Shown: positions 19,076-30,942 of the stretch, piece after piece | How positions within the stretch are numbered: position 1 is the first letter of the stretch | Layout of the letters: every line of letters begins with the position of its first letter | Source of the DNA: a virus | Direction: 5' to 3' (one strand) | IMG/VR virus record: IMGVR_UViG_3300044972_000763 | Span: 1 to 61,730 of that record | DNA length: 61,730 nt | The notes under the pieces: generated by a model | The model's input: the letters and a program-made list of their open reading frames with translations, nothing else | What the model was told of the DNA's origin: nothing | Database searches by the model: none | Made by a program: the position numbers and the translations under genes

Positions 19076-19633
19076 ATGGGTAAGCTAATAGGGAGCAAAG
19101 GTAAGGGGAACAAGCCAAAGGCTAGGCTACCAGTCTATATACCAGACACTACTCTAGGCGCCTCTAATGTTCTAGCTTTACCGCAAGCCGATATGGGCAA
19201 GCTTACAATGAAGCAAGAAGCCTTCGCTCAGGCTATTGCATCCGGTCTCTATCCTAATCAAGCGGCGGCGTATCGCGTGGCATATGACGCCGAGCAAATG
19301 GCAGCCAGCACGATCTACCAAGAAGCCTCCAGGCTAATGGCTAACCCGCTCATAGCCGCAAGAATAGATGAGATAAAAGCACTAAAAGAGGCAGGGGAGA
19401 GGCTTGATCATGCCAAAATCCGCGCTCATGTCATCGCCAGACTGCATATTGAATCCCTAGACCCTGATTCTAGCCCTGCATCCCGAATAAGGGCTTTGGA
19501 ATTGCTGGGCAAGCTGGGGGGCGTGGCCGCATTTGAGAAACAAGCGGAAGACACTAGCCTTCCACAGGATGCGGATAGCGTATCTAAAGCCCTGAAAGCT
19601 AAACTAGAATCCCTAATGAAATCAAGCGCTTAA
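19076..19633 (+). CDS. terS: terminase small subunit (Terminase_2-like pattern)
   Basis: LTMKQEAFAQAIASGLYPNQAAAYRVAYDAEQMAASTIYQEASRLMANPLIAARI matches the remembered terS helix-turn-helix signature. Lies upstream of terL on the same strand. Confidence 0.6.
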   Translation: MGKLIGSKGKGNKPKARLPVYIPDTTLGASNVLALPQADMGKLTMKQEAFAQAIASGLYPNQAAAYRVAYDAEQMAASTIYQEASRLMANPLIAARIDEIKALKEAGERLDHAKIRAHVIARLHIESLDPDSSPASRIRALELLGKLGGVAAFEKQAEDTSLPQDADSVSKALKAKLESLMKSSA

Positions 19634-19922
19634 CTAGAATCCGGTTAATTTTTACATAATCCACCTTACGCGGTAACTTATGGAAAGACTATTGCAATCA
19701 ATAGGTTAGCACTAGCCTAGTGCTAGGCGATAGGTAAGCACTACTTACTAAAGGCTAGATGTTCCTGGTTTGTTCTAGCCTGTTAGATGTAGGTTACTGT
19801 ACTGGTAGCAGATAGAATCCAATCAGCCAGGGGTAGACGGGGTTTGAATCGGCAATGGCTGGACCCCACCCACGGGGGGAAGGGGGTAATCAGCGAGCGC
19901 AGGCGTGTGGGTTTACATAGTA

Positions 19923-19990
19923 TTCCACACTAATCTTTTCGTATTTCCACACCAATCTTTTCATTATTCCACACTTTCCAATCTTTCCAA
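19923..19990. repeat. three direct TTCCACAC(Y)(N)AATCTTT repeats phased at 22 bp
   Basis: Copies start at 19923, 19945 and 19967. Read directly. Confidence 0.85.
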
Positions 19991-20097
19991 CCGCTTACCT
20001 CCCCACATTTCATTGGCGCTTTCAAAATTCACTTCACAAAAATCAATTTATAGTTTGTTATGTCCGGTTAAATGTCCGGTTAGATGTAGGGCATATA

Positions 20098-20106
20098 TGT
20101 TATAGT
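20098..20106 (+). promoter_or_regulatory. possible extended -10 promoter (TGTTATAGT)
   Basis: A TGn + TATAGT motif read in the terS-terL gap. No good -35 element. Confidence 0.25.
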
Positions 20107-20282
20107 TTTTATGGTTCGCGCAATTTTCTTACTTTCGCTCGCTGACGAGATTATAATTTGTTGCGTGGGCCCCCACCCCCTTTGTAATTTTATTACTTTG
20201 TTTCATATTTTTGTATATGGAAACCACCCCCCTTACAATTTATGGTCCCCTTTGATAGCCGGTATTGCTATCAGGGGTAGTT

Positions 20283-20402
20283 ATGACGCCTAGTCGGTTT
20301 CTTGATGTATTGGCTGCTATGTTGTTTATTGTGGTGGTCTTTGTGGCTGGCGCGTTTATAGGGTCATGGCTGATTGTTATGTTAATAGCGATATTGTTTT
20401 AG
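20283..20402 (+). CDS. possible 39-aa membrane peptide
   Basis: MTPSRFLDVLAAMLFIVVVFVAGAFIGSWLIVMLIAILF. AGGGG lies 5 nt upstream. Below the track cut-off. Confidence 0.3.
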   Translation: MTPSRFLDVLAAMLFIVVVFVAGAFIGSWLIVMLIAILF

Positions 20403-20476
20403 GGGTTGTAATGTTGGTTGTGCTTCTATAGGTTGTGTTTATGTCTCTCTAGACATGTGTCTCCTTTTAAAACTTG

Positions 20477-20507
20477 CCCGGTGGCTTTAGGGCTGCCGGG
20501 TTTTTTT
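20477..20507 (+). terminator. rho-independent terminator 9 nt upstream of the terL start
   Basis: A 9-bp stem (CCCGGTGGC / GCTGCCGGG, two G-U pairs) with a 6-nt loop, followed by TTTTTTT. Confidence 0.6.
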
Positions 20508-20515
20508 GGTGATTT

Positions 20516-22993
20516 ATGGACGCTGCTGCTATTGCTCAGATATTGCCAAAGTTATCTTCGATGCCGATTGCGGATCAGGTTGAGTTGTTGAAGCTGTTGG
20601 AGGGTTTGGAGGACGCTAAGGAGAAGGAGAAGGCAAAGAGTAAGTTCCTTCCTTTTGTGAAGCGTATGTGGCCTGGGTTTATTGAGGGGCCTCACCACAA
20701 GATCATGGCTGATACATTTGATCGGGTGATTAGTGGGGAGTGTAAGCGGGTTATTATTAATATGGCGCCCAGGCACCGTCTTAATATCAACACTCCAATT
20801 CCGACTGCCGAGGGCTGGAAGGCGGTAGATTCGGTTCAAGTAGGGGATTATGTTTTTGCGCCAGATGGAAGTCCAGTTCTTGTAACTGGAAAATCTGACC
20901 AATATGAAGAAGACCTTTATGAAGTAGAAACTTCTGATGGGCAGATTATTGAATGTGATGCTGAACACCTTTGGACGGTTAGGTTTGGTTCTGGGCGCCC
21001 GTATGAAACTCTCTCTACGGCAGAAATTCTTAAAAAACTAGAAACTGAATCCTGGCGCAAAACGGGCAATCTTCCCATGCTGCCCCCCCAAAGTGCCGCT
21101 CAATATCCCTATAGGCCACTTCCAATTGATCCGTATGTTTTGGGTGTTTGGCTGGGGGATGGAAGTTCTTGGGATGGGTCAATTGGATGCTCGTTTAAAG
21201 ATATGGCCCAAATGCGGTCCCAGATTGAGGCTTGCGGCTATCAAACAACGCACAACCCAAAATTCCAAAAGTTTAATATCCTTGGGTTGATGGGGCAGGT
21301 TAAGGCCGCTGGGCTGCTTCGCAATAAACAGATACCAGAAGAGTATCTTTGTTCTTCTATTGAGCAAAGGATGGCTTTGCTGCAAGGGCTAATTGACACT
21401 GATGGTAGCGTTGGTTCGGATGGGAAAGTTACCTTTCATCAAACGAATTTAGATTTAACAAATCAAGTTCTTTGTTTAATTCATTCACTTGGGATTAAAG
21501 CGCGCATTACTAAGCGGCAAACTTTTTATGGTGAAAAGGAAAGTGAGCCATCTTTTAGGGTTATGTTTAAGGCTGCTAATGCAGCCAGAATCCCCAGGAA
21601 AGCGGTGAACTGCCGCCCTCTTAACGGGAACTGGGGTAGGTCAATTGATATTCGTAAAACAGACCGGCGCGGCCAAGTGCGCTGTCTCGAAGTGGCAAAT
21701 GAAGATGGGTTGTTTATGGCTGGCCGTGGCTGGGTTGTGACTCACAACACTAAGTCAGAGTTTGCTTCATATTTATTGCCTGCATTTTTTATGGGCAGGT
21801 ATCCTGAGAAGAAGATTATTCAGGCTACCCATACGGCTGAGTTGGCGGTTGATTTTGGTCGTAAGGTTAGAAACTTAATTAAGGACGAAGGTTTTAGTGA
21901 AGTGTTCCCTGGGGTCGGGTTGCGGGCTGACTCGACTGCATCTGGCCGGTGGAACACTACATCGAATGGCTCCTATTTTGCCGTAGGTGTTGGCGGCGCT
22001 ATCGCTGGTAAGGGCGCCGATCTATTCATCATTGATGATCCCCATAGCGAGCAGGAGGCTATTCAGGCTGCTCATGACCCTAAAGTATTTGAGAAGGTGT
22101 ATGAGTGGTATTCCTCTGGCCCCAGGCAGAGGCTACAGCCTAATGCGGCCATTGTGGTAGTTATGACTCGCTGGGGTGTTGGCGACCTTACAGGGCGCCT
22201 CGTACAAGCCTCTATTGACCGTGGGGATGGGGACCAGTGGGAGGTGATTGAGTTACCTGCTATTCTCCCATCCGGTGAACCTATGTGGCCTGCGTTCTGG
22301 TCAAAACCCGCCCTAGAGGCTTTGAAGGCCGAACTGCCCGCTTCTAAGTGGAACGCTCAGTATCAACAGCAACCCACCTCAGAAGAAGGGGCTATTCTCA
22401 AACGAGAATGGTGGCGCCGTTGGGATAAGAAGCGTTTGCCTAATTGTGAATACATTATCATCGCATCGGATACCGCCTTTACCAAGAACAACCGGAGCGA
22501 CTATTCGGCCTTTACCGTTTGGGGGGTGTTCGAGAATGAGAATGAGGGCGGGTCTAACATTATCATGCTGGACGCCTGGAAGGATCGTTTGGAGTTCCCT
22601 GATCTGAAGGCTAAGGCCATTGAGATATATAAAGAATGGGAGCCCGATACCTTCCTTATTGAAGCCAAGGCGTCCGGGTTGCCTTTGATTCATGAATTAA
22701 GGAAGGCCGGGGTGATGGTTTCTGAGTTCACTCCGACTAGAGCATCCGGGGATAAGGTGATGCGCGCCAATTCTATCTCTGACATATTTGCATCGGGGGT
22801 TGTTTGGGCGCCTACTGGTAATTGGGCGAATGAAGTGATTGAAGAATGTGCGTCGTTTCCTGTTGGGGCGCATGATGACTATGTAGATACGGTCATTATG
22901 GCCCTTATGAGGTACAGGCAGGGTGGTTTATTGAGGCTTCCAAGTGATGATGAGGACGATTATAGTCCACCCGCTAGGGCCGAATACTATTAA
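20516..22993 (+). CDS. terL: terminase large subunit interrupted by an intein (exteins about 20516..20776 and 21749..22993, roughly 501 aa spliced)
   Basis: N-extein ...KRVIINMAPRH and C-extein TKSEFASYLLP rebuild a PRHxKS-type Walker A. DLFIIDDPH is a Walker B-like motif. The C-terminal nuclease-like region contains SDTAF ... GAHDDYVD. Confidence 0.85.
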   Translation: MDAAAIAQILPKLSSMPIADQVELLKLLEGLEDAKEKEKAKSKFLPFVKRMWPGFIEGPHHKIMADTFDRVISGECKRVIINMAPRHRLNINTPIPTAEGWKAVDSVQVGDYVFAPDGSPVLVTGKSDQYEEDLYEVETSDGQIIECDAEHLWTVRFGSGRPYETLSTAEILKKLETESWRKTGNLPMLPPQSAAQYPYRPLPIDPYVLGVWLGDGSSWDGSIGCSFKDMAQMRSQIEACGYQTTHNPKFQKFNILGLMGQVKAAGLLRNKQIPEEYLCSSIEQRMALLQGLIDTDGSVGSDGKVTFHQTNLDLTNQVLCLIHSLGIKARITKRQTFYGEKESEPSFRVMFKAANAARIPRKAVNCRPLNGNWGRSIDIRKTDRRGQVRCLEVANEDGLFMAGRGWVVTHNTKSEFASYLLPAFFMGRYPEKKIIQATHTAELAVDFGRKVRNLIKDEGFSEVFPGVGLRADSTASGRWNTTSNGSYFAVGVGGAIAGKGADLFIIDDPHSEQEAIQAAHDPKVFEKVYEWYSSGPRQRLQPNAAIVVVMTRWGVGDLTGRLVQASIDRGDGDQWEVIELPAILPSGEPMWPAFWSKPALEALKAELPASKWNAQYQQQPTSEEGAILKREWWRRWDKKRLPNCEYIIIASDTAFTKNNRSDYSAFTVWGVFENENEGGSNIIMLDAWKDRLEFPDLKAKAIEIYKEWEPDTFLIEAKASGLPLIHELRKAGVMVSEFTPTRASGDKVMRANSISDIFASGVVWAPTGNWANEVIEECASFPVGAHDDYVDTVIMALMRYRQGGLLRLPSDDEDDYSPPARAEYY
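20777..21748 (+). mobile_element. intein (~324 aa) with a double-motif LAGLIDADG homing endonuclease; class-3-like WCT signature
   Basis: Block A-like LNINTPIPTAEGW, block B DAEHLW, LAGLIDADG motifs LGVWLGDGSS and LLQGLIDTDGSV, blocks F/G VRCLEVANEDGLFMAGRGWVVTHN followed by +1 Thr. The N-terminal boundary is uncertain by 1-2 residues. Confidence 0.75.
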
Positions 22994-23047: not shown

Positions 23048-25489
23048 ATGAGTATTGATAAGCCTTTGGAGCATTCATTAGACAAAAAGCCTGCCGATGT
23101 TACTATTGGTGTTGTGAATCCCGAGGCAGTAACCATTGAGACCGAAGATGGTGGCGCCATTGTTATATTTGGTTCTGAAGAAAAAGATGAACCCGAGTTT
23201 GGCGCTAATCTAGCTGAGTATATTGATGATAGTGAACTTGGGCGTATTTCACAGGAACTAGTTTCTCATTTTGACAATGATATTCGGTCTAGGGCTGATT
23301 GGGAAAAGACATACAAGAGTGGTTTAGACCTTCTTGGTCTGAAGATTGAAGATCGTTCTACCCCTTGGGCTGGGGCTTGTGGGGTGTTTCACCCTATTCT
23401 GTCTGAAGCGGCGGTTAGGTTTCAGTCTCAGTCTATTATGGAGACCTTCCCTGCTGGTGGCCCCGTTCGAACCCAAATTGAGGGTAAGGTCACACCAGAA
23501 AAAGAGAAGCAGGCCCTTCGAGTTAAGAATGATTTAAACTATCATCTGACTAAAAAGATGAGTGAGTACCGATCCGAGCATGAGCGGCTTTTGTTTAGCC
23601 TTCCTTTGGCTGGGGCTGCATTTAAGAAGGTGTATTATGATCCTTCATTGGGGCGCCCGGTTGCTATGTTTGTGCCAGCAGAGGATTTAGTGGCGCCATA
23701 CGGGGCTTCTGACTTGGTTTCTTGCCCTCGTTATACCCACATCATGTATAAATATCCCAATGAATTGAAGAAGTTACAGGTTTCTGGGTTCTACCGGGAC
23801 ATGGATTTGCCTGAGCCTGTAACGCAGATTAGTCAAATTCAGCAGAGTAAAAATGAATTAACGGGCGAAACTGAGGCTAGTGCTGATGATCGCCACCAAC
23901 TCCTTGAAATGCACGTTGAATTGGACATTGAGGGATATGAGGACAAGGATGAGAATGGTGATCCCACTGGTATTGCCCTGCCTTATGTTGTCACTATTGA
24001 CCGCCAGAGTGGTTTGATTCTTTCTATCTATCGGAACTGGCGCCAAGATGATCCGTTGAACTTAAAGCGAATGCACTTTGTTCAATATGCGTATATTCCT
24101 GGGTTTGGGTTCTATGCCTTTGGTTTGATTCATTTGATTGGTGGTATTGCCAAATCTGCCACTTCCATTCTTAGGCAGCTTGTAGATGCTGGGACGCTGG
24201 CTAATCTCCCGGCTGGTTTGAAGGCTCGTGGTTTGAGAATTAAAGGCGACAGTACGCCTTTAATGCCGGGTGAGTTTAGGGACGTTGATGTTCCTTCGGG
24301 CGCCATTAAGGACGCTATTACCTTCCTTCCGTATAAGGAGCCCTCTCAGGTGCTTGCCGCCCTGTTAGGGACAATGGTGGAAGAGGGGCGCCGGTTTGCT
24401 TCTATTGCTGACTTGCAGATTGGGGACTCAAACCAACAGGCCCCGGTAGGCACCACGCTTGCTCTGATGGAGCGGGCGATGAAGGTTATGTCTGCCGTCC
24501 AAGCGAGGCTTCATGCTTCCTTGGCGCAGGAATTGGATATTCTTGTTGAGATTATCAAGACCCACGCGCCTGATGAATATGAATATGAGACTGATCCGGG
24601 TGCTACCCGTGGTAAGGATTATGATGATCGGGTAGATGTGATTCCAGTTACCGATCCCAATGCGGCTTCTTTGTCGCAGCGGGTGGTTCAATATCAGGCA
24701 GCCCTACAGTTGGCGGCACAAGCCCCGAATATGTATGACTTGCCTGAACTACATCGGCAGATGCTCGCTGTGCTTGGTATCAATGATATTGATAAAATTA
24801 TCCCTTCGACCAAAGACAAACGGCCTGCCGACCCCATTTCTGAGAATATGGACATTCTAAACGGCAAACCCGTCAAGGCGTTCATTTATCAGGATCATGA
24901 GGCCCATATTCAAACTCATATGTCAGCCATGCAAAACCCTCGTATTATGGCGCTCATTGGGCAGAACCCGATGGCCGGGGGTATCCAGGCCGCTATGATG
25001 GCCCATATCAATGAGCATATCGCCTTCCAGTATCGCCGGGAGATTGAAGAACAACTTGGCGTCCAACTGCCAGAACCTAATGCTGAGTTGCCGGAAGATG
25101 TGGAAGTGATGCTGTCTAAGCTGGTTGCCGAGGCTTCTAATCGCCTTCTGGCAAAGGATCAGGCAGAGGCGCAGCAGCAGCAGATTCAACAGCAGATGCA
25201 AGACCCGGTGGTTCAAGCGCAGATGCAGGACGCTCAAAATAAACAGATGGAAGTCCAGCGTAAGATCGCCAAAGATCAAGCTGACAATATGGCAAAGGCG
25301 GACCAGCGGCAAATTGAGCGTGATCGGATTGAATCTCAGGAGCGTATTGCCGGGGTTAATGCCGGGATTAAGGCATCAAACGAGCGTGATAAGAATATCA
25401 TGACTGCCGATAAGAATAGGACTGATGCAAAGCTGGCTGGGTTTAAGGCCGGTCATGAAATGATGAGGGGCCTCAATGGATCAGTTTGA
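23048..25489 (+). CDS. portal protein (813 aa)
   Basis: Large ORF immediately after terL. RBS GGAGAG upstream. Gln/Glu-rich coiled C-terminal region. Assigned mainly by size and position. Confidence 0.7.
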   Translation: MSIDKPLEHSLDKKPADVTIGVVNPEAVTIETEDGGAIVIFGSEEKDEPEFGANLAEYIDDSELGRISQELVSHFDNDIRSRADWEKTYKSGLDLLGLKIEDRSTPWAGACGVFHPILSEAAVRFQSQSIMETFPAGGPVRTQIEGKVTPEKEKQALRVKNDLNYHLTKKMSEYRSEHERLLFSLPLAGAAFKKVYYDPSLGRPVAMFVPAEDLVAPYGASDLVSCPRYTHIMYKYPNELKKLQVSGFYRDMDLPEPVTQISQIQQSKNELTGETEASADDRHQLLEMHVELDIEGYEDKDENGDPTGIALPYVVTIDRQSGLILSIYRNWRQDDPLNLKRMHFVQYAYIPGFGFYAFGLIHLIGGIAKSATSILRQLVDAGTLANLPAGLKARGLRIKGDSTPLMPGEFRDVDVPSGAIKDAITFLPYKEPSQVLAALLGTMVEEGRRFASIADLQIGDSNQQAPVGTTLALMERAMKVMSAVQARLHASLAQELDILVEIIKTHAPDEYEYETDPGATRGKDYDDRVDVIPVTDPNAASLSQRVVQYQAALQLAAQAPNMYDLPELHRQMLAVLGINDIDKIIPSTKDKRPADPISENMDILNGKPVKAFIYQDHEAHIQTHMSAMQNPRIMALIGQNPMAGGIQAAMMAHINEHIAFQYRREIEEQLGVQLPEPNAELPEDVEVMLSKLVAEASNRLLAKDQAEAQQQQIQQQMQDPVVQAQMQDAQNKQMEVQRKIAKDQADNMAKADQRQIERDRIESQERIAGVNAGIKASNERDKNIMTADKNRTDAKLAGFKAGHEMMRGLNGSV

Positions 25490-28177: not shown

Positions 28178-29086
28178 ATGGCTATTAGTCGCGCACAGCT
28201 TCTTAAAGAACTGCTGCCGGGTTTGAACAAGCTGTTTGGCTTGGAATATAACCGCTATGGTGAACAGCATAAGGAAATCTATGAGGTGGAAACCTCGGAG
28301 CGTTCCTTTGAAGAGGAAGTGAAACTTTCTGGCTTCGGGGCCGCGCCCGTGAAGAACGAAGGTATGCCGATTGCGTATGATAACGCGCAAGAGGCGTTCA
28401 TTGCCCGCTACAACCATGAAACGATTGCCCTTGGTTACTCCCTTACGGAAGAAGCCTTTGAGGACAATCTGTATGAAAGCCTCTCGATCCGCTACACGAA
28501 GGCCCTGGCTCGCGCTATGGCTTACACGAAGCAGATCAAAGCGGCTGATTTGCTGAATCGTGGTTTCACCACCTTCCAATCTGGCGATGGTGTTACCCTG
28601 TTTAGCACGGCTCACCCGCTGGTTGGCGGTGGTGTCAACAGCAATCGCCCGACAGTCGGCGCGGATTTGAATGAAACCTCCCTTGAGGCGGCGGTAATTC
28701 AGATGGCGCTTTGGACGGACGAGCGTGGTCTGCTTATCGCGGCCAAGCCGCGTAAGCTGATTGTCCCGCCGCAGCTTCAGTTTGTTGCTACCCGCATTCT
28801 CGAAACTGCGCTTCGTGTCGGGACTTCGGATAACGACCTTAACGCGCTGAAGAATAACGGTTCTATTCCTGAAGGCTATACGGTCAACAACTTCCTGACT
28901 GATCCGAATGCTTGGTTCCTTAAAACTGACGTTCCGAATGGCATGAAGCACTTTGTTCGTGTGTCTCAGGAAACCAAGACTGACGGTGACTTTGATACCG
29001 GCAATATCCGCTGGAGGGCGCGTGAACGTTACTCCTTTGGTGTCTCGGACGCTCTCGGCATCTTTGGAAGCCCCGGAAGCAATTAA
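28178..29086 (+). CDS. major capsid protein (HK97-fold type, 302 aa)
   Basis: RBS AGGAGGG upstream and a strong terminator immediately downstream. The sequence style (AHPLVGGG...LIVPPQL...) recalls HK97-like capsid proteins. Also supported by position in the head module. Confidence 0.7.
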   Translation: MAISRAQLLKELLPGLNKLFGLEYNRYGEQHKEIYEVETSERSFEEEVKLSGFGAAPVKNEGMPIAYDNAQEAFIARYNHETIALGYSLTEEAFEDNLYESLSIRYTKALARAMAYTKQIKAADLLNRGFTTFQSGDGVTLFSTAHPLVGGGVNSNRPTVGADLNETSLEAAVIQMALWTDERGLLIAAKPRKLIVPPQLQFVATRILETALRVGTSDNDLNALKNNGSIPEGYTVNNFLTDPNAWFLKTDVPNGMKHFVRVSQETKTDGDFDTGNIRWRARERYSFGVSDALGIFGSPGSN

Positions 29087-29178: not shown

Positions 29179-30942
29179 ATGGCAAACCAAAACTCATGGA
29201 AAGCTTCGGCTGCAAGTCGCAGAAAAATTGCCGAATTAAAATTTTGGGAATCTGTATCAAGTCTTTATGGGGATTCCTTGGATTTTACTGATTTCCAATA
29301 TCAGGGGGCTACTACGTCCTGTTTTGTGTCCTGCATTAAGCATGGACCGTTCAAAACAAAACCAACGTACCTTGTGAATGGATATGGCTGCCCATCATGC
29401 GGAAGAGAAAAAATCAAAGAAGCGGCGATGGGCAAGCGCCTTGGGTTTGATGGTTTTGTTTCTAAAGCTATGGAAATACACGGTAATTTATATTCATATC
29501 CAGAACAAGAATATGTGACAAATAAAGATAAGGTAAAAATTATCTGCTCGAAGCATGGAGAGTTTTGGCAGAAGCCCAACTCTCACCTTTCTGGCAAGGG
29601 CTGTTATGAGTGCGCTAATGATTCAAAAAGAGCCAGAAATTCGGCTGTAAGCGCGCTTACAAAAAGTGGATTATTGGATAGGTTGATTGAGGCAAACCCA
29701 TCTTGGGAATATGATCTATCTTCTTTTACGGGGATGGCAAAAAATCTAAGAGCCATCTGCCCCGAGCATGGGGAATTTTATTCAACCCCAAATAATATGC
29801 TTCGCAATAGTGGCTGCCCAGGATGCGGCGAAAGAAAAATGCTAGCAGCATCCGCCGCCAGAAAGTTAACAACAGAACGGTGGATCGAAAGGGCTAAAGC
29901 TGTTCATGGCGGGAAATACCTATATTGTGATACCGTTTATGATACAAATGGGAAAATGGCGGTTCAATGCCCCAAGCATGGAGAGTTTCTTACAACTTCA
30001 GACCACGTGTATCAGGCAACTGGTTGCCCTAGGTGTTCTATACATTTATCTAAGGCCGAGGACGAAATTGCAAATTTATTAAAGATTTATACTGAGGTTG
30101 ACCAGCGTAATAGGTCATTGATTAAACCGCTCGAATTAGATATATTTTTACCCAAGCATGGTGCGGCTATAGAGTACTGCGGGGATTATTGGCACAGTCA
30201 TGGAGACCCCGACTCGGAAAAGGCGGGAATGGCCAAGCATCACAAGAAGTACAATTTGTGCGCCCAAATGGGAATTAGGCTTATCACTATATTTGAAAGC
30301 GAGTGGATGGGTCGAAGGGCGGCGATTAAGCGCATTTTGTTAAATTGCATAGGGAAAACAAGGGGCAGATTGATGGCCCGCAAATGTAGTGTCGGGCGCC
30401 CCACAAGCTCAGAAGCTAGAGATTTTTTTGAATTATACCACCCACAGGGAGGCAATGGCAACGGTGAGCATTACGCCCTTTATCATAATGCGAAGATAGT
30501 CGCCTGCATGAGGTTCACGCTTGGCGCCAATGACCGTGGCGTAGGCGCTGAGAGGTCTTGGACGCTATCTAGGTATGCTACTAGGGTTAATGTGGTCGGA
30601 GGCGCCTCTAGGCTTTTTAGTGCGTTTAGAGAAGAAAATGACCCTGATTTTGTAAAGTCGTTTTCAGACAATAGGTATTTTGAAGGAGAAATGTATAAAC
30701 GACTCGGCTTTGAGTTAGATGCTGAATTGCCGCCAGATTACATGGTTTGGAGTCATAAGGTTGGTTTGAAGCCAAAGTCTTATTATCAAAGAAAGTTTAT
30801 TCCCCAAAGGCTTTTGGACCATGGGATTCAAGACCCCTTTGAACCAAGCACAGACAATAGGACTGAGGCAGAAATGACATATCTAATGAAGTGTAGGAGA
30901 ATATATGATTGTGGCAAGAAAAGATGGGTTTGGCGCAAATAG
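29179..30942 (+). CDS. free-standing homing-endonuclease-like protein (587 aa)
   Basis: Four C-x-(K/E)HG-x-F ... GCPxC zinc-ribbon-like modules. A PD-(D/E)XK/Vsr-like core (SKAEDEI...ELDIFLPKHGAAIEYCGDYWHS). A C-terminal ARKC...FFELYHPQG...VVGGASRLF...FSDNRYFEGEMYKRLGF domain. Visibly AT-richer than the flanking genes. Confidence 0.6.
   Translation: MANQNSWKASAASRRKIAELKFWESVSSLYGDSLDFTDFQYQGATTSCFVSCIKHGPFKTKPTYLVNGYGCPSCGREKIKEAAMGKRLGFDGFVSKAMEIHGNLYSYPEQEYVTNKDKVKIICSKHGEFWQKPNSHLSGKGCYECANDSKRARNSAVSALTKSGLLDRLIEANPSWEYDLSSFTGMAKNLRAICPEHGEFYSTPNNMLRNSGCPGCGERKMLAASAARKLTTERWIERAKAVHGGKYLYCDTVYDTNGKMAVQCPKHGEFLTTSDHVYQATGCPRCSIHLSKAEDEIANLLKIYTEVDQRNRSLIKPLELDIFLPKHGAAIEYCGDYWHSHGDPDSEKAGMAKHHKKYNLCAQMGIRLITIFESEWMGRRAAIKRILLNCIGKTRGRLMARKCSVGRPTSSEARDFFELYHPQGGNGNGEHYALYHNAKIVACMRFTLGANDRGVGAERSWTLSRYATRVNVVGGASRLFSAFREENDPDFVKSFSDNRYFEGEMYKRLGFELDAELPPDYMVWSHKVGLKPKSYYQRKFIPQRLLDHGIQDPFEPSTDNRTEAEMTYLMKCRRIYDCGKKRWVWRK

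Follow-up and report, generated by a model that had tools for sequence, protein, structure and literature searches.

A probable class 3 intein with a LAGLIDADG endonuclease domain in the Walker A loop of a phage large terminase

How does a phage obtain a working packaging ATPase from a gene in which the Walker A loop of the large terminase subunit is interrupted by 324 codons? This question is raised by the terL gene in IMG/VR virus record IMGVR_UViG_3300044972_000763, of which we analyzed positions 1 to 61,730 (the window, i.e., the whole stretch of 61,730 nucleotides). We consider it very probable that the interruption is a class 3 intein, mobile and containing a LAGLIDADG homing endonuclease in frame, situated in the Walker A loop of TerL between His87 and Thr412. 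This assessment draws on the element's boundaries, its motifs, its homology to solved class 3 inteins, its fold, the purifying selection acting on it and its patchy, discordant distribution, all of which could be established computationally. The precursor is composed of the following parts.

20516..22993, plus strand: terL precursor open reading frame (ORF), large terminase subunit with one intein (825 amino acids plus stop; Terminase_6C 52.8 bits; phrog_38, E-value 2e-104).
20516..20776, plus strand: N-extein, amino acids 1-87, whose C-terminal end is the N-terminal half of Walker A, ...INMAPRH (from intein-less homologues; the alignment to the T7 gp19 Walker A, AFRGIGKS, is weak).
20777..21748, plus strand: intein, amino acids 88-411 (324 amino acids), in which a LAGLIDADG endonuclease domain divides the HINT splicing domain (from Pfam, phmmer, alignment and model).
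21749..22993, plus strand: C-extein, amino acids 412-825, whose first residues, TKSEF, are the C-terminal half of Walker A (from domain scores and homologues).

Using the terminase sequence spliced in silico as the query, we searched 5.8 billion proteins and examined the best 120 of roughly 8000 homologues, determining their junctions by direct reading and then by gap-tolerant pairwise alignment. There is no insert in 103 of the 120; the region reads ...INM(A/P)PRHTKSEF... in intein-less homologues, with PRHTKS at the site in 97 of the 103. Intein-less close relatives include P0121, whose TerL is 96% identical to that of the window, and P0124 (91% identical, with PRHSKS). Judged from these sequences, the sole junction that fits the intein-less homologues is His87/Arg88 ... 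Asn411/Thr412, where a slash marks the junction here and below. Because the homologues read across the site uninterrupted, the boundary of the insert is fixed and its residue 1 is Arg88. A previous reading of this locus, made from the sequence only, had placed an insert of about 324 residues, with Arg88 as its first residue (nucleotides 20777-21748), in an 825-residue TerL, in agreement with the 324 residues at amino acids 88-411 that we find. That reading had also named a shifted boundary as a way in which it might fail. Such a shift, which would make the element a class 1 intein, was ruled out: the intein-less alleles fix the junction, and position 1 is not Cys, Ser or Thr.

On the weak T7 gp19 alignment given below, the intein interrupts the Walker A loop between PRH and TKS, a single residue ahead of the loop's Lys, and Thr412 (position +1) takes the place of the conserved Gly of GK(S/T). 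Since the loop is physically split, splicing is needed for the P-loop, and it can soundly be inferred that the terminase's ATPase activity depends on splicing, as the sequence-only reading had reasoned and as has likewise been argued for mycobacteriophage TerL inteins (PMC5050341). With regard to the residues themselves (Thr412-Lys-Ser, 21749-21757), PRHTKS is typical of the whole terminase clade, and PRHGKS occurs in only 2 of the 103 intein-less homologues. The Thr in Walker A is therefore not an artefact of the intein, because the same Thr is usual across the clade with or without one. It also makes the H/T junction usable by an intein.

What defines class 3 inteins is the co-variation of a non-nucleophilic residue 1 with the WCT triplet (Trp at position 12 of block B, or B12; Cys at F4; Thr at G5), together with Ser or Thr at +1 (PMC2807308). 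The corresponding blocks of the window intein are listed here.

20777..20815, plus strand: block A, RLNINTPIPTAEG; the non-nucleophilic Arg88 is residue 1 (6BS8 alignment, homologues).
20948..20980, plus strand: block B, IECDAEHLWTV, with Asp148 (B7), His151 (B10) and Trp153 (B12, the W of WCT) (6BS8 alignment, survey).
21674..21721, plus strand: block F, QVRCLEVANEDGLFMA; Cys390 (F4, nucleotides 21683-21685) is the predicted catalytic nucleophile (alignment to Cys118 of 6BS8, survey).
21728..21751, plus strand: block G, GWVVTHN/T, with Thr409 (G5), His410, Asn411 (the C-terminus of the intein) and Thr412 (+1) (alignment, survey).

All five class 3 features are present, namely Arg88, Trp153, Cys390, Thr409 (before His410-Asn411) and Thr412. 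The earlier assignment to class 3 was based on the WCT triplet, and it stands: Arg88, His151 and Trp153 (DAEHLW), Cys390 (VRCLEV) and Thr409-His410-Asn411/Thr412 (VVTHN/T) are all at the positions that it gave, and the triplet occupies B12, F4 and G5 (PMC2807308), in register with W67, C118 and T137 of the Msm DnaBi1 intein, a class 3 intein that has been characterized by experiment. When all PDB chains were searched using phmmer, the top matches were the three solved class 3 inteins, 6BS8 (Msm DnaBi1, the best match, E-value 8e-16) and 6RIX/6RIY (M. chimaera DnaB1, 7e-15), whose class 3 nature is stated in PMC6195587 and PMC7664689; an alignment to class 3 inteins was the check that had been suggested. 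The 6BS8 alignment, a match far beyond chance, covers each protein from its residue 2 through its terminal Asn, and pairs DAEHLW with DAQHQW (H65, W67), VRCLEV with VRCVEV (C118) and VVTHN with VPTHN (T137). In Msm DnaBi1, W67, C118 and T137 form the WCT triplet, and the C118A mutant is splicing-dead (PMC6195587).

We also surveyed the 120 best intein homologues from a search of the same 5.8 billion proteins; 113 of these cover the C-terminus and 116 cover position 1. His at B10 and Trp at B12 are present in all 120, and Asp at B7 in 117. The F4 Cys, the G5 Thr and the terminal Asn each occur in 113/113 homologues covering the C-terminus, as does Ser or Thr at +1. Residue 1 is Ala in 110 of 116, Arg in three, and Asp, Gly and Cys in one each. 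In a 39-sequence alignment (A1), H64, W66, C303 and N324 (intein numbering) are invariant. One homologue, P0017, has the WCT triplet together with Cys1.

These residues bear on a different chemistry, class 2-type splicing as in KlbA inteins, in which Thr412 (+1) would attack the N-terminal junction directly and Cys390 would be non-catalytic. A non-nucleophilic residue 1, such as Arg88, is shared by class 2 and class 3 (PMC2807308). However, class 2 inteins have Asp at F4 and no WCT (PMC2807308), whereas here the full triplet is present and is invariant in the family. Moreover, the nearest solved relatives are class 3 inteins that require the F4 Cys, the C118A mutant being inactive (PMC6195587), and Thr at +1 is a poor nucleophile for direct amide attack. 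We therefore regard class 2-type splicing as extremely unlikely.

For the class 3 intein, we infer the splicing chemistry, the endonuclease activity and the cleavage target by homology, the mechanism being drawn from Msm DnaBi1 and from the class 3 prototype, mycobacteriophage Bethlehem DnaB (MP-Be DnaB). The thiol of Cys390 (F4), activated by His151, Trp153 and Thr409, would attack the His87-Arg88 peptide bond to give a block F branched thioester. The N-extein would move to the hydroxyl of Thr412 (+1), giving a block G branched ester, and Asn411 would cyclize, releasing the intein. An O-to-N acyl shift would link His87 to Thr412, resulting in a 501-residue terminase with an APRHTKS P-loop. 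The freed intein of 324 residues would cut intein-less terL genes of co-infecting phages, and repair would copy the intein into them (homing).

The prototype and the solved inteins resemble the window intein to different extents. MP-Be DnaB, compared by its described features, is likewise phage-borne (341 amino acids), with WCT and Thr at +1 (PMC2807308), and is inserted directly before Thr-Lys (QDQ/TKNTF versus PRH/TKSEF in the window); unlike the window intein, it has Pro1 and a DnaB-like helicase as its host protein. Msm DnaBi1 (6BS8) and M. chimaera DnaB1 (6RIX/6RIY) share with it a non-nucleophilic residue 1, DxxHxW, VRC(L/V)EV, (P/V)THN, Ser or Thr at +1, the same block order and register, and insertion into a P-loop. 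However, these two are mini-inteins without an endonuclease, they have Ala1 and reside in a bacterial helicase, and their redox partner Cys48 corresponds to Leu in the window intein.

Inteins in large terminases are well documented. Kelley et al. (2016) described seven TerL insertion sites in mycobacteriophages, some of them occupied by class 3 inteins, and showed splicing and endonuclease activity (PMC5050341). For actinobacteriophages, a preprint by Gosselin et al. (2025) reports 293 inteins in TerL and 287 inteins of class 3 (10.1101/2025.01.02.630785). Like the window intein, the class 3 TerL inteins of actinobacteriophages lie in the ATPase domain of the large terminase and have WCT and an in-frame LAGLIDADG endonuclease. 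Among isolated phages, two members of the window intein's own family lie in TerL Walker A loops, those of Gordonia phage Zipp gp2 (35% identical, Leu1) and Bacteroides phage BF486P1 (33% identical, Gln1). Both have the classic junction GK/S, whereas the H/TKS junction of the window, with Arg1, is two residues upstream. It is also two residues upstream of the GK/S junction of the related inteins P0003 and P0004, which are found in GKS-type terminases. In Caulobacter phage CcrColossus, GenBank annotates an intein in the TerL P-loop; it starts with Pro1 and has a block F Cys.

The closest full-length relatives in the 5.8-billion-protein search are inteins of dCTP deaminases, which are 33-38% identical over 100% of the intein and share WCT and the LAGLIDADG motifs. 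They differ in having an unrelated extein, an EGK/SSLG junction, Ala1 and a cellular host. Relatives P0007-P0119 are overwhelmingly such dCTP deaminase inteins, with single cases in ThyX (P0052), a Terminase_1 TerL (P0074) and a PD-(D/E)XK protein (P0120). Several of the dCTP deaminase intein proteins are named for Actinomycetota, e.g., P0018 from Stackebrandtia soli and P0087 from Actinomycetospora cinnamomea.

An AlphaFold2 model of the window intein, built on the 39-sequence alignment, is of very high confidence (mean predicted local distance difference test score 95.5, predicted template modelling (TM) score 0.92). Foldseek matched the model to bifunctional LAGLIDADG inteins, namely PI-SceI (E-value 4e-19, TM-score 0.72), TliVMA and PI-PfuI, and its splicing lobes to 6BS8 with TM-scores of 0.80-0.83, normalized to the target. 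As modelled, the element has a HINT splicing fold with an endonuclease domain inserted into it, and is of the PI-SceI type. The endonuclease motifs, and an intein-less site from a related contig (L008), are given below.

21134..21169, plus strand: LAGLIDADG motif 1, YVLGVWLGDGSS, amino acids 207-218, with acidic residue Asp215 (LGVWLGD215G) (Pfam, alignment).
21371..21412, plus strand: LAGLIDADG motif 2, MALLQGLIDTDGSV, amino acids 286-299, with acidic residue Asp296 (LIDTD296G) (Pfam, alignment).
Contig L008: 48-base-pair intein-less terL site, ATTATTAATATGGCGCCCCGTCAT/ACTAAGTCAGAGTTTGCTTCATAT.

Both LAGLIDADG motifs had been recognized from the sequence, and LAGLIDADG_3 (38.7 bits, cut-off 22.5) and Hom_end (30.5 bits, cut-off 21.1) score above their Pfam cut-offs. 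The catalytic acidic residue is kept in both motifs. In the 39-sequence alignment, G127 and G129 of motif 1 and D207 and G210 of motif 2 are invariant, while D128 and D209, respectively, are nearly so. The freed 324-residue intein is predicted to cut intein-less terL at ...GCGCCCCGTCAT/ACTAAGTCAGAG...; representative TerL inteins of actinobacteriophages both splice and cut intein-less alleles (PMC5050341).

Comparison with related phages provides evidence on mobility. In the metagenomic phage contigs L004-L006, the TerL (P0122) has exteins that are 96% identical to those of the window in protein and approximately 90% in DNA, and both the portal and the capsid of L005 show 92% identity to their window counterparts. 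These contigs have an intein at the identical codon junction, but it is 339 amino acids long, starts with Pro1, ends in TLN and is only 42% identical to the window intein. Contigs L007 and L008 are without an intein, although their TerL proteins are 91-96% identical (and the L007 portal 91%); at the empty site of L008, the 24 nucleotides downstream are the same as in the window and the 24 upstream differ at three synonymous positions only. Conversely, in P0146 an Arg1 intein that is 84% identical resides in a terminase that is only 72% identical (portal 70%), and P0153 contains a 70%-identical copy of the window intein lineage. The G+C content at third codon positions is 0.39 in the intein versus 0.59 and 0.52 in the exteins. 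This presence, absence, replacement and discordance is the classic footprint of the homing cycle. The intein is also dispensable, as relatives that are 91-96% identical in TerL carry none.

The clade to which this TerL belongs (homologues P0122-P0202) is a hot spot for inteins at three sites; among the 120 best TerL matches, the clade's inteins number 7 at Walker A, 2 at Walker B and 8 at the C-motif. Those at the Walker B site, IIDDPH/SEQEA, are class 3-like with Ala1, and those at the C-motif site, VIVM/TRWG, are class 1 with Cys1 and without a LAGLIDADG Pfam match. At least three lineages that are about 40% identical to each other occupy the Walker A site, PRH/TKS, with Arg1, Pro1 or Ala1. 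The Pro1 lineage (P0122, at 7114-9699 of L004 and 6695-9280 of L005; P0155; P0202) ends in T-L-N or T-M-N; it is without the penultimate His, and Trp, Cys and Thr are kept.

Relative to P0146, the intein shows a proportion of nonsynonymous differences (pN) of 0.114 and a proportion of synonymous differences (pS) of 0.739; the values for the endonuclease domain are 0.147 and 0.771, and pN in the splicing lobes is approximately 0.07. Because pN is far below pS, both the splicing and the endonuclease parts are under purifying selection. It is nonetheless conceivable that the intein splices and is no longer mobile, its LAGLIDADG domain being kept as a scaffold with an inactive endonuclease. Inactive endonucleases are common among inteins, activity cannot be read from sequence, and evolution is faster in the endonuclease domain (pN 0.147) than in the splicing lobes (0.07). 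However, Asp215 and Asp296 are kept and are nearly invariant in the 39 sequences, the endonuclease domain is itself under purifying selection, the presence, absence and replacement among phages that are about 90% identical indicates recent mobility, and related TerL inteins cut intein-less alleles (PMC5050341). We consider an immobile intein unlikely, yet it is the only one of the alternatives discussed in this paper that has an appreciable probability, and it would leave the identity of the element unchanged.

It is important to consider the points that weigh against a functional class 3 intein. Arg1 is rare, as its three occurrences among the 116 homologues are all alleles of the same TerL site. 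A full-text literature search, whose coverage did not extend to Tori and Perler 2011 (PMC3133030) or the supplement of Tori 2010, found no mention of Arg1 in class 3 inteins. Pro1 substitutions lowered splicing of the class 3 prototype (PMC2807308). WCT grafted onto a class 1 intein gave no splicing (PMC7664689), so the motif by itself is no guarantee of activity. Splicing and DNA cleavage by the window allele are predictions from its residues. Finally, an attempt to date the divergence of intein and extein from synonymous substitution rates (dS) yielded no date, as synonymous sites are saturated (pS 0.64-0.85).

That splicing is predicted only and that Arg1 is unusual could also be taken to mean that the insert has decayed and does not splice, such that terL is dead and the window represents a defective phage or an assembly remnant. 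This explanation is very unlikely, in our view. The frame is intact across 825 codons, all catalytic residues are retained, pN is far below pS in both splicing and endonuclease parts relative to the diverged allele, Arg1 is kept in six alleles that are 52-84% identical, and the structural model is of very high confidence.

The sequence-only reading had gone further, and suggested that the dependence of the terminase on splicing is a possible post-translational checkpoint. In such a case, conditional splicing, responding to redox state, metal or temperature, would gate DNA packaging to the phage's benefit. The location of the intein is compatible with this idea, given that unspliced TerL should be unable to bind ATP normally, and in a class 3 relative, Msm DnaBi1, H2O2 causes reversible inhibition via a Cys48-Cys118 disulfide (PMC6195587). 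A candidate partner also exists: Cys147 (20954-20956, block B position 6), just before the block B Asp, is Cys in all 10 inteins of the TerL clade, at two sites and in several lineages, and is uncommon elsewhere. However, Cys48 of DnaBi1 aligns with Leu in the window intein. Most dCTP deaminase inteins and other aligned relatives have Ala at position 6, for which Cys may be a conservative replacement. The clade consists mainly of intein-less alleles (103/120), among them relatives that are 91-96% identical in TerL, so no dependence is evident. Insertion at a conserved site is explained by conservation of the homing site alone. The checkpoint is consequently speculation that our data do not support, and we judge it improbable. 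The same low probability applies to the specific version in which the intein is more than a parasite, and redox pairing of Cys390 with Cys147 makes splicing conditional, thereby gating terminase activation and packaging after translation. A related conjecture is that the clade's Thr-for-Gly Walker A (PRHTKS) may be maintained by, or have co-evolved with, repeated intein residency at that residue.

The remaining features of the terminase and its surroundings are as follows.

22016-22045, plus strand: Walker B, ADLFIIDD, within the C-extein (weak T7 gp19 alignment).
22460-22909, plus strand: Terminase_6C nuclease domain, amino acids 649-798 (Pfam).
19076-19633: small-terminase-like ORF upstream of terL (phrog_51, E-value 9e-17).
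23048-25489: portal gene, downstream of terL (phrog_1216).
28178-29086: major head protein (gene-context annotation).

The gene context of terL is a phage head and packaging module. TerL itself matches phrog_38, 'terminase large subunit' (E-value 2e-104), and its C-terminal RNase H-like nuclease domain scores 52.8 bits with Terminase_6C (cut-off 22.6) and 59.8 with TIGR01630 (cut-off 41.65). The Pfam model Terminase_6N gives 14.6 bits on the in-silico spliced protein, below its cut-off of 22. The alignment of spliced TerL to the T7 gp19 structure is weak (E-value 0.02), and places APRHTKS on FRGIGKS and ADLFIIDD on ADIIIADD. Minus-strand ORFs at 20552-20968 and 21179-21385 were taken as chance ORFs, since the plus-strand frame has full-length homology support. 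The nearest deposited phages by TerL are phage 023Pt_psg01, Phage DSL-LC04 and Pelagibacter phage HTVC027P (54-56% identity). Their terminases are approximately 500 amino acids long, and those of 023Pt_psg01 and HTVC027P read uninterrupted ...IINMPPRHTKSEF.... The phage that carries the window's terL belongs to an uncultured aquatic lineage.

Between the small-terminase-like gene and terL lies an ORF-poor stretch of about 880 nucleotides (19634-20515) with a strong T-over-A skew, possibly a pac site or a regulatory region. Short direct repeats, TTCCACAC[T/C]AATCTTTTC, occur at 19923-19989; a further direct repeat, CCACCCCC..CAATTT, is present in two copies (20173, 20224), and ATGTCCGGTTA is repeated in tandem at 20060-20083. 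A 39-codon hydrophobic mini-ORF at about 20283-20402 is annotated as a gene in relatives. A GC hairpin with a T-run ends approximately 10 nucleotides before the terL ATG. Elsewhere in the structural module, directly 3' of the major head protein gene, 29179-30942 (plus strand) encodes a free-standing HNH/homing endonuclease of 587 amino acids (phrog_559, E-value 1e-114; Pfam matches to DUF723 and the DUF4379 zinc finger). The corresponding gap is 164 nucleotides in L005, whose capsid is 92% identical, versus 1994 nucleotides in the window. This ORF has the appearance of another insertion of a selfish endonuclease, the second in the window and independent of the intein.

Class 3 LAGLIDADG inteins in the ATPase loops of phage terminases have been known since 2010, so the element in the window is an ordinary addition to them and leaves current understanding unchanged. 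What is new is an allele with Arg1, which is seen only in alleles of this TerL site, inserted before the Thr-for-Gly of Walker A in an uncultured aquatic phage. For annotation, the gene should be entered as a terminase precursor that contains an intein and whose mature peptides are joined between His87 and Thr412. Arg1 and the H/TKS junction slightly widen the sequence space of class 3 N-terminal junctions, and could interest protein engineers. The element adds a documented class 3 terminase intein from beyond the actinobacteriophages, in a lineage of aquatic phages. This terminase clade, in which inteins occupy the Walker A, Walker B and C-motif sites and at least three diverged lineages at one of these coexist with intein-free alleles, offers a natural data set for the homing cycle and for intein replacement.

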